DNA of 64,000 nt, taken from assembly GCF_001677475.2 (NCBI RefSeq), contig NZ_CP015229.1. One strand, given 5' to 3'. Position numbers and translations under genes: made by a program. Shown piece after piece: positions 60,340 to 64,000 of this stretch (within the stretch, counting starts at the first letter, position 1; each line of letters starts with the position of its first letter). Origin of the DNA: Escherichia coli (GTDB lineage: Bacteria > Pseudomonadota > Gammaproteobacteria > Enterobacterales > Enterobacteriaceae). The notes beneath the pieces are model-generated. The model was not told where the DNA came from. It was given only the letters and a program-made list of their open reading frames with translations, and did not search any database.

Positions 60340-60885
60340 TTATCTGCCAACGTAACTATTTCACCCGCAGTATGCTCAAAACGTTCAGACTCAAGTTCAA
60401 CGCTTAACGCCATGCCCCCAAGTGCCAGCGCTGCTTTTATTATGGAGCCTGATCCCATGAAAAAGTCGGCAACCAAATCTCCCGGACGCAAACAGAATGC
60501 GCTCTGTTGCCGGGAAATACGCCCGCAGGCTTTCCTTGTTGCACCCGTTCCAGCGCCCGGACAGCTTCGCCCAGATAATGTGGTTCAGCACATTAAAGCG
60601 CTCACGCATCATGATTTCGATATCAGATGCCAGGCGATGACCACAGAACAGGTAAAGACTTCCGGCGGGTTTTAATACCCACCAGAACTGCGCCAGACAC
60701 TGATCCAGCCATTTCAGGTAATCATCGTCGCCCTTCCACTGGTTATCCCAGCCCTCGGGCTTCACTTTAAAGTATGGCGGGTCTGTGACTATCAGATCGA
60801 CAGAGTTTTCCGGTAAGGTCTGGATAAATTCCAGGAAATCAGCGTTGATTAACTCGCAGCTGGATATTTTTACAGTATTAGCCAT
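60340..60885 (-). pseudogene. DNA N6-adenine/N4-cytosine methyltransferase, frameshifted
   Basis: DPPY motif in called ORF (60397-60885); FFMGSGS motif and C-terminus in another frame ending at 60340. Confidence 0.6.
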
Positions 60886-61035
60886 AGATCAATAAGCACT
60901 TCTCTGATAGGCTCATACCGCTTTTGCGCAAAGCAGATGGGCCTGAGGTTTGCTTGTGACCCCAACGCATGAGCAGATGGCTGGCAGGTGCCGCTAACAC
61001 CCACCAGCCGCCCATTACCACAAATTAAAAAGCCT

Positions 61036-61233
61036 TCACTGCGGAAGGCGTCTGTAACAACCGAACTGATAATCTGCCAGACCCGCCATAACAAGCTGAG
61101 TCAGTATTAACTGGCAGCGCTCGCGTGAAAGGTAAGTATTCTGCGCAATCTCCCCGACGGTCGCCGGTTCGGTGACGCTTAATTCATTAAACACCACTCT
61201 GGCGGTTTCGGTCATATCCTGCTGTTTTAGCAT
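61036..61233 (-). CDS. hypothetical small winged-helix DNA-binding protein (PapI/FaeA-like by pattern)
   Basis: ORF 61036-61326; start placed at MLKQQDMTETARV (66 aa) with AAGGGA RBS. Confidence 0.4.
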   Translation of the reverse strand: MLKQQDMTETARVVFNELSVTEPATVGEIAQNTYLSRERCQLILTQLVMAGLADYQFGCYRRLPQ

Positions 61234-61354
61234 GTCTTTTTCCCTTTTCTGGTTAACGTGACATACCAATAACTCTTGTCGAAAAAGCCAGCAAGCAGAA
61301 AGACCAGTATTAATAACCACCAGCACATTTAACGCACTGCGCTACTTTGCGGGC

Positions 61355-61381
61355 ACAAAAAACCCGCTCAGAGGAGGCGGG
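61355..61381 (-). terminator. intrinsic terminator downstream of CPBP gene
   Basis: minus strand CCCGCCTCCTCTGAGCGGG hairpin followed by TTTTTTGTG. Confidence 0.55.
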
Positions 61382-61521
61382 TTCAGGCTATGCAGTGAAA
61401 TAACCACTCTTAAAAGCATACATGATTTTTTACGTACGTAAATGCTTTGCCGTGCATATTTTTCATGCAAATGTCACATACTGCTATTTTCAGTGTTATA
61501 AATTTAAAGCCATAGAAAAAA

Positions 61522-62346
61522 TCAATTATGTTTTAAGAATGGATAGGTAAAGAATAACAAGTGACACAGATTCAGACCAAAATGGAAAAGGGTTGCCACC
61601 CACAAGCGCCCACTCCACATCCATGACAATCCATACACAACACCAGATAACGTGGCAAATAATACAAGTAAAGCACCACCTGAATAGTGATAAAAACCAA
61701 ACAACAAAGACGCCACAATTAACGCAACCAATGGAGACGTCACTTCTGATAGCCGTGATTGAATATACCCTCTAAATAATGACTCCTCTGCCAGAGACAC
61801 AAAAAACAAATTAGCCAATATAAACTCTGGCAACCACTCTGGAAAATGAATCTCTGGCTTTAACCCACCAAAAAAAACAGCCAAAAACAGGATAAGAGGA
61901 ACAGAGAGCAACAGAGCCGCCCATTTCCACAAAGACACTTCTGATTTCACTTCTTTTTTAAAAAAAGAAGCTGTACACAGGACTAACAAAAATGGCACCA
62001 GCGCTTTATCAAAATTAAAATACATTGTATAGGGAGTGCTTTGAGGTCCGACAGTGACAGACTTTAGCACTACAGGATTGTGAAACCCTGGCCATAAATG
62101 AAAAGATAATGCTATGGCTGATAAAACTATGCCAGCTTCATATATGGATTTAGCCCAGGCGTTATATTTCCAGTTGAACTTCAAAATAATAAAAAAAACG
62201 ATTGTAGCAACAAAAAACAACACCGGCCAATCAATAATATCATTAAGCACAGCCAGGACAACAGACACCGTCAACAATGAAAAAGCCACTACCTTATGCC
62301 AACTGAGAGTTGACAGTGACAGTGCTAACACAATCCACATAAACAC
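61522..62346 (-). CDS. CPBP-family (CAAX protease / Abi-domain) intramembrane metalloprotease
   Basis: 274-aa polytopic ORF with EESLFRGY and FGFYHY motifs; visibly AT-rich. Confidence 0.7.
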   Translation of the reverse strand: MFMWIVLALSLSTLSWHKVVAFSLLTVSVVLAVLNDIIDWPVLFFVATIVFFIILKFNWKYNAWAKSIYEAGIVLSAIALSFHLWPGFHNPVVLKSVTVGPQSTPYTMYFNFDKALVPFLLVLCTASFFKKEVKSEVSLWKWAALLLSVPLILFLAVFFGGLKPEIHFPEWLPEFILANLFFVSLAEESLFRGYIQSRLSEVTSPLVALIVASLLFGFYHYSGGALLVLFATLSGVVYGLSWMWSGRLWVATLFHFGLNLCHLLFFTYPFLKHN

Positions 62347-62494
62347 TCCTTTTATTTAATGATGAAGATTGATTATCAATATTTTCAATTCACCTGGCAA
62401 CATTTTGTTTACCTTCCATAAAATTCATGACCATCAAAAAAATAAACATATTAATTATAAACACAGAAAACATAACCCTCGTCACTATATATCC

Positions 62495-62869
62495 CTACCG
62501 CATATCCATATCTAACCGGACATTCAGAGCCATAAGCATTCCTTCAATAATACCTTCAGCTTTATAAAGTCTTTTACCAATAAGCCCATCAGAACATCTA
62601 TGCTTACGTGCAAGAGCCATAAATGTCATTCCACCTACGTAATAATCGACCAACAAATCGTGCAAATACTGATTATTCTTGTTTAATCGTGCCATACAGC
62701 CACAAATTATCATGGCGTCATCATCAGAACACTGAGGACGTGATTTCACTTTAGTTGGGATTAATCCTTTAAAACCAGCAGCTATCGAGGACCATGTTAC
62801 ATCTTCATGATTATTTGCTGCCCATGCTCCCCACCGCTCCATAACCAGCTGAATATCACGCAACATCAT
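62495..62869 (-). CDS. late-gene antiterminator Q
   Basis: 124-aa ORF downstream of rusA; resembles 127-aa Q proteins of E. coli lambdoid prophages ([24 protein letters not shown]...). Confidence 0.75.
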
Positions 62870-63227
62870 TACATCCTCTTATTACGAATATATTCACGCC
62901 CAGTCGCCCACCGCAAACAGGCAGACCATGCACAATATTGATTTCATCAAACTGCTCGTCGTCTATAAGCAGCCCCGCATGTGTCAGCGCATCCAGCAGT
63001 GCTTTCAGGATATTGTCCAGGTCACGACGGCGCTTATCCGGTGGATCTGCAATAATCTTTATCGCCAGCCTTCCGGACAGGTTTAATTTCAACCGCTGCT
63101 GGCGAACAATGAGCACCACATCACGGCGATAACGCTCACCGGCTTTTGATACAAAATATGTGCTGCCATAACGTCGCCAGTAGGTGTTCACCGTCGGCGG
63201 GTAAGGCAAAACAAACTCTATACGCAT
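62856..63227 (-). CDS. rusA: Holliday junction resolvase RusA
   Basis: 123-aa [20 protein letters not shown]...; overlaps Q start. Confidence 0.85.
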
Positions 63228-63239
63228 CAGTAACCTCTT

Positions 63240-63947
63240 TTACCCAAGCACGCCGGTTGCAAAGGCGTGATCAAGAAAACGAAAAATTAAATCAATCTGG
63301 GAACCATGGTTTTCTTCGAACGCCAGCAGATCCGCATGAAGTTCGTTGTGATGCTCCCGGCACAGCGGTAGTGTAAAAATATCGTGGGCCTTTGTTCCCA
63401 TTCCGCCCTGACCATGACCAATCAGGTGATGGGGATCGTCGGCTGGCTTACCACAACACGCACACGGCTGTGTCTTTACCCAGCGCGTGTATTTCTCATT
63501 TACCCAGCGGCGACGTTTAGGTCGCCTCATGAACGATTCAGGAGACTCCGGATCAACGGCGATACTGACAACCGTTTTTTTCTGTGGTGGATTTTGTTGC
63601 TGGTGGACGTGAAGTGGCAGCGCAATATTTTTTGTGCGCTGCTTCAGTATGCTGGTGGCTGTCGGTTCTCCCGGTATGATGTCGCTCTCGCGGTACACCG
63701 AGCAAATTTTCTCTGCACGTAACCCCAGAGAACGACGTAATACTGTCTCCGGTAGCGCGTCCGCCACCTGATTGCAGACCGCCCACCAGGATAATTCAGC
63801 CAAAGATAATTCACGCTCCTGCGTACCGCTTATTGCGTGACCGATGACGTCAATCATCCATGCTGACAGGTTTTGATGAGCAAGTTGCTCGAGTGATTCG
63901 GATGTCTGGTCACGCAGCTGGTTGTCGCAGTGCCAGCACAACACCAT
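63240..63947 (-). CDS. nin-region protein with C-terminal Cys/His-rich (HNH/zinc-finger-like) motif
   Basis: 235-aa ORF; motif CACCGKP...DPHHLIGHG...PLCREHHNELH; family assignment uncertain. Confidence 0.55.
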   Translation of the reverse strand: MVLCWHCDNQLRDQTSESLEQLAHQNLSAWMIDVIGHAISGTQERELSLAELSWWAVCNQVADALPETVLRRSLGLRAEKICSVYRESDIIPGEPTATSILKQRTKNIALPLHVHQQQNPPQKKTVVSIAVDPESPESFMRRPKRRRWVNEKYTRWVKTQPCACCGKPADDPHHLIGHGQGGMGTKAHDIFTLPLCREHHNELHADLLAFEENHGSQIDLIFRFLDHAFATGVLG

Positions 63948-64000
63948 TGCGCCGGTACCATAACGGTGAATGACGGTTTCGCTGTGATGATAATCGCCGT

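Follow-up and report, generated by a model that had tools for sequence, protein, structure and literature searches.

A probable deletion pseudogene of a prophage beta-class DNA methyltransferase in Escherichia coli

A methyltransferase remnant in an Escherichia coli prophage is, with high probability, a deletion pseudogene of a beta-class DNA methyltransferase gene that has lost 503 bp, and not a working gene. The window (the whole stretch of 64,000 nucleotides of contig NZ_CP015229.1 that was analysed) carries the remnant in the late region of a lambdoid prophage. Here the minus-strand order is DUF968, RusA, antiterminator Q, a CPBP-family membrane protease, a small hypothetical gene and the methylase remnant, followed by tRNA-Thr, tRNA-Gly, a hypothetical gene, TerB, DUF3927, IraM and a holin. 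The parts of the remnant and the two tRNA genes next to it are as follows.

60488..60885, minus strand: 5′ remnant of the methyltransferase gene (start codon 60885..60883, codons 1–133, motif IV DPPY)
60487..60488, minus strand: deletion junction, TTTGC-G-TCCGGG, at which homology breaks from both sides
60397..60486, minus strand: out-of-frame tail of the 162-aa ORF (SGRFGCRLFHGIRLHNKSSAGTWGHGVKR + stop), which is 3′ gene sequence in the wrong frame
60336..60488, minus strand: 3′ remnant in the other frame (RPGDLVADFFMGSGS...TLADN + stop), with motif I FMGSG and PF01555 positions 180–218
60221..60146, minus strand: tRNA-Thr(UGU)
60142..60068, minus strand: tRNA-Gly(UCC)

The minus-strand ORF at 60885..60397 encodes 162 aa, with DPPY at residues 35–38 (window 60783..60772), and matches profile positions 1–105 of Pfam PF01555 (N6_N4_Mtase; E=2e-15). 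A second minus-strand frame, whose last sense codon ends at 60339 and whose stop lies at 60338..60336, matches positions 180–218 of the same profile (E=2.4e-8). It is shifted one base from the DPPY ORF and holds FMGSG (motif I, FxGxG) at 60461..60447 (minus strand), DNA that reads ...RLFHGIRLH... in the DPPY frame. The translations and the PF01555 matches therefore bear out the preliminary description of the locus, which had placed DPPY in the frame of the 162-aa ORF and FxGxG in another. It had also given both frames as open between about 60460 and 60530, and they are, but the real overlap is wider, at 188 nt (60584..60397). The last 29 residues of the 162-aa ORF are a wrong-frame tail: Pfam and PHROG matches stop at residue 134, and neither resource gave any homology for the tail in its own frame. 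The sole ATG of the C-terminal fragment, at 60458, falls inside the FxGxG motif, and inspection of the sequence revealed no Shine-Dalgarno at the proper distance from it. Scanned for promoters and terminators, 59900–61600 gave no more sites than shuffled sequence did, and nothing that would serve this fragment as a start signal. Judged by the Pfam E-values and by 93–98% DNA identity to annotated phage methylase genes, the match lies beyond chance. The original view of the locus as a disrupted phage (prophage) DNA methyltransferase gene was correct.

That view attributed the disruption to one indel causing a frameshift, and here the comparison with intact homologues, which had been proposed as a way of locating the lesion, leads to a different description. 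The intact homologues examined are 348–352 aa long and each is encoded in one frame. Three of them were aligned with the window: the nearest intact allele in complete E. coli genomes, from strain 52F4 (L004:3216-4262, 1047 bp, 348 aa, WP_097316156.1), the putative DNA methylase L24 of phiP27 (CAC83542.1, 352 aa) and a DNA methylase of an Stx2a phage (BCI49001.1, 352 aa). The first 398 nt of the gene in the window are 98% identical to the 52F4 gene, up to the junction base, and 93–94% identical to the two phage genes, and all three proteins share DPPY and FxGxG. All three genes lie in the same slot as the remnant, 3′ of Q and a small hypothetical gene and 5′ of phage tRNAs, and all are intact and in a single frame with 503 more central bases than the window, whereas their last ~90 nt and their downstream tRNAs are unlike those of the window allele. 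Each of the three shows the 503 bp absent from the window at one junction (gene nt ~399–901). In the pairwise alignments the window is collinear with the phage methylase genes to gene nt 398 and picks up at nt 901, and the offset against the 52F4 gene is the same. The 503-bp gap falls at window 60488/60487, inside the interval 60460–60530 in which a disruption had been expected, and the breakpoint is ambiguous by 1–2 nt (CG microhomology). Homology on the left side (to L004, P27 and Stx2_14040) stops at this junction and homology on the right side (to L006, described below, P27 and Stx2_14040) begins there. Adding 503 bp to the 550 bp in the window gives 1053 bp, an in-frame gene of 350 codons.

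On these alignments the lesion is a 503-bp internal deletion of the prophage DNA methyltransferase gene and not a small indel. The frame change is a by-product of the length of the deletion, since 503 is 167 × 3 + 2 and codons 134–300 plus 2 nt are gone, so that ‘frameshift’ in the description of the locus is to be corrected to ‘503-bp internal deletion’. The 162-aa product is not the full-length form, because intact copies (at least 80% of the gene covered) are present in 1873 of 5426 E. coli genomes, and the intact homologues run to 348–352 aa. Longer intact homologues and the loss of essential sequence are both seen here, as expected of a deletion pseudogene, and of the explanations first put forward a genuine pseudogene is the one that the 503-bp loss favours.

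Lost with the deletion are the last part of the protein's first conserved block, the entire family-specific middle and the opening of the second block, which includes HPCEKP. In the intact protein PF01555 matches as a single stretch (residues 29–339, profile positions 1–218), of which positions 106–179, about a third of the domain, are missing from the window. The solved beta-class enzymes M.RsrI (1eg2), M.MboIIA (1g60), CcrM (6pbd) and DpnA (5hfj) match the intact homologue with E=1e-15 to 1e-24 in two blocks (residues ~8–148 and 270–340) and have its motif order, with IV before I. They are distant relatives, as the phage family has its own middle region of ~120 aa. In beta-class enzymes the middle region is the target-recognition region. 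The copy in the window is missing this middle part as well as the inner edge of each conserved block. Thus the 162-aa ORF has motif IV, (D/S)PP(Y/F), but FxGxG is not on the same polypeptide, and the complete domain with a recognition region between motifs IV–VIII and X–I is wanting, residues 134–300 being absent; as it stands, the remnant does not hold the complete PF01555 domain in one frame that the beta class requires. Neither the N-terminal nor the C-terminal piece would be expected to methylate DNA. A literature search found no specificity assigned to this phage methylase family and no usable function for the methylase beside stx, the only enzymes mentioned there being a different, IS629-interrupted adenine methyltransferase and the host Dam. 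In PHROGs the full-length methylase is phrog_67, with separate families for the N-terminal half (phrog_6025, 192 positions) and the C-terminal half (phrog_6952, 181 positions), which suggests that split or truncated methylase copies are common in deposited phage genomes.

The same junction, within a 1101-bp segment around the locus, occurs in six complete E. coli genomes among the 5426. Identity over the segment is 100% in GB089, 09-00049, RM9088 and OkiPb01715, 99.6% in N96 and 98.5% in OkiPb01695, and the sources of these strains include beef, lettuce, crow, Japanese cattle and Tibetan pig. The OkiPb01695 copy differs at 14 of 550 positions with an identical junction, and its prophage has a different lysis cassette.

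The 3′ part of the remnant has relatives of its own. When the locus was compared with phage records by megablast, matching was confined to the leading 434 nt of the query (window 60920..60487), which were 90–94% identical to the ‘DNA methylase’ genes (1059 bp, 352 aa) of phiP27 (L24) and many Stx2 phages, and this limit was the first hint that the 3′ part belongs to another allele. The 3′ remnant is 74–84% identical to the 3′ ends of the P27, Stx2_14040 and L004 genes; against L004 it is 84% identical over 57 nt and then unalignable. Against locus L006 of E. coli 08-00022, in contrast, it is 93% identical from the junction base, and L006 runs on upstream into sequence that the window lacks. 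This rare 3′ allele (...SERFEHTAGEIVTLADN; including GAACGTTTTGAGCATACTGCGGGTGAAATAGTTACGTTGGCAGATAATTAA) was found only in the six junction carriers and L006. The L006 gene, CP48_RS09140 (protein P0001, 146 aa, on 47 contigs), is an N-terminally truncated methyltransferase remnant, also a deletion pseudogene, followed by the same tRNA-Thr/tRNA-Gly pair; an independent deletion cost this gene its 5′ two-thirds, along with part of the gene upstream, but spared codons that are absent from the window. At L006:3271-3651 (NZ_CP013662.1) the last 126 methylase codons remain, fused to sequence from the beginning of the small gene upstream. Loss of the methylase from this slot seems to have happened repeatedly. 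No intact gene with the 3′ allele of the window was found in complete E. coli genomes, which gave the six deleted copies and the one N-terminally truncated copy. When the L006 fragment was used to query the protein database, every protein retrieved was short or partial (≤220 aa) and no intact parent appeared, with none above 86% identity at ≥95% query coverage except the truncated P0001 itself, and tblastn of phages for the 3′ allele reached ~80% identity at best, again with no intact parent.

The direct parent of the deleted gene is therefore one that we infer. The ancestor would have been a beta-class DNA methyltransferase gene of ~350 codons (motif IV, recognition region, motif I) in the late region of a lambdoid prophage, 3′ of antiterminator Q and 5′ of the tRNA pair. 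A single deletion of 503 bp between sites sharing 1–2 nt (CG), probably microhomology-mediated, would have removed codons 134–300 and shifted the frame, leaving a DPPY N-terminal piece that runs into 29 nonsense codons and an FxGxG C-terminal piece with no start signal of its own, and this remnant would now be drifting. A rival history, which we think rather unlikely, is that illegitimate recombination joined the 5′ 398 nt of one methylase allele to the 3′ 152 nt of another at non-equivalent positions, with the same pseudogene as its outcome. The closest relatives do differ by side (L004 at 98% for the 5′ part, L006 at 93% for the 3′ part) and lambdoid late regions are mosaic, but a mosaic parent, L004-like at its 5′ end and L006-like at its 3′ end, would look the same after a simple deletion, and L006 and L004 are 89.5% identical over nt 673–958, so that the allele types are not very distant. 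As intact alleles commonly diverge after gene nt ~956–998, the simplest history is that a mosaic parent then underwent a simple deletion.

Whichever history holds, the deleted copies carry substitutions of their own. Relative to the three intact alleles the window has C17F, R69W and P108L, carried by none of the three, and beside motif I it has a T-to-I change (GSGST to GSGSI) and an R-to-G change; the OkiPb01695 copy is without the changes of the window and has its own A2V, N3D and T23A. Between the two deleted copies there are six nonsynonymous and eight synonymous changes, as against two and ~20 between intact alleles (Fisher p=0.036, on few changes and sequences that are not independent), suggesting that constraint on the deleted copies may have been relaxed. 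It is very improbable that the deleted allele has been kept for a function, whether through its 133-residue N-fragment as a non-catalytic DNA-binding or regulatory protein or through a late transcript shorter by 503 nt that alters expression of tRNA-Thr/tRNA-Gly and the lysis genes; if true, this would explain the presence of the allele in two prophage backbones. The chance that the 162-aa product, or both fragments together, function as a truncated or split protein, such as a regulatory or DNA-binding remnant, is slimmer still. The start codon and upstream region are retained and the allele has persisted into two backbones with different lysis cassettes (L003 and L005), but motif I, which binds AdoMet, is missing from the N-fragment, whose last residues are nonsense, the C-fragment is without a convincing start, the three substitutions in the window are radical, and purifying selection on the 162-aa ORF was not seen here.

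A sequencing or assembly error, by which a collapsed region or a miscalled homopolymer would have split an intact gene, was among the explanations first offered and is now barely credible. It would have had a reasonable prior for a one-base indel, and the two-frame overlap does hold homopolymers (T5, A4 and G5 only), but all of these lie away from the junction, where there is none, and the lesion is of 503 bp. Six complete genomes, each assembled independently, share the junction at 98.5–100% identity, and one of them has diverged by 1.5%; this recurrence excludes error and marks the lesion as real. The last of the early suggestions, programmed ribosomal frameshifting (of the dnaX, prfB or IS1 insAB type) that would join the DPPY and FxGxG frames into a functional short methyltransferase, can for practical purposes be dismissed: the two frames are open together, as noted above, but a scan of the overlap over 60540..60397 for an XXXYYYZ heptamer found no slippery site, the two-frame arrangement is not conserved (six of the 5426 genomes, against a single-frame gene in 1873, with every phage homologue examined single-frame), non-conservative substitutions are accumulating, and a frameshift would not restore the enzyme, as the frame-corrected product would still be without a third of the catalytic domain (PF01555 positions 106–179) and the whole recognition region.

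That the gene is a pseudogene was already known, being flagged in public E. coli annotation. The RefSeq locus CO57_RS08865 of strain GB089 (NZ_CP013663.1 1489968-1490366), whose DNA is 100% identical to window 60000–61100, is a pseudogene annotated as ‘DNA-methyltransferase; incomplete; missing C-terminus’; its equivalent span is 60885..60487, so that it ends at the base equivalent to the junction at window 60487, and ACZ5DF_RS05510 of OkiPb01695 has the same call. The RefSeq note on CO57_RS08865 omits the out-of-frame C-terminal 50 codons that are still present. RefSeq also has a 40-aa ‘hypothetical protein’, WP_236922851.1 (MGSGSIIKAALALGG...TLADN), at 60336–60458 on the minus strand, which is an annotation artefact, namely the out-of-frame C-terminus of the methylase pseudogene. 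For annotation pipelines the point is that half-motifs in two frames need not signal a one-base error. The remnant itself is ordinary and of little importance, a further case of gene decay in the moron and late region of lambdoid prophages, at the site occupied by stx in Stx phages.

In phiP27 and the Stx2a phages the methylase has Q on one side and the tRNA and stx genes on the other. The tRNA-Thr/tRNA-Gly pair directly 3′ of the remnant occupies the slot that in Stx phages holds the Ile/Met, Arg and Arg tRNAs, after which stx follows; the pair is 92–96% identical to other temperate coliphage pairs and ~84% identical to part of a T4-like phage tRNA cluster. On the other side of the methylase module, between it and antiterminator Q, is the CPBP-family intramembrane protease gene (274 aa, 61522–62346, minus strand), which occurs at the deletion-carrying loci L003 and L005 but not at L004, where the methylase allele is intact; at its position phiP27 has an unrelated 409-aa ORF (L22). 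Window 56445–63998 is 99.5% identical to GB089, with the Q–methylase–tRNA module at 99.5–100%, whereas the remaining prophage, structural genes included, is only 84–95% identical, and the two prophages are thus related by module-level mosaicism. The lysis region of GB089 has an IS1 insertion of ~770 bp (L007:20408-21175) that is absent from the window (~56445–56452). Also within the late region, adjoining the IraM-like gene, is a match to the Rfam sRNA STnc100 (RF02076) at 58167–58342 on the minus strand, with 93.7 bits against a gathering score of 47.
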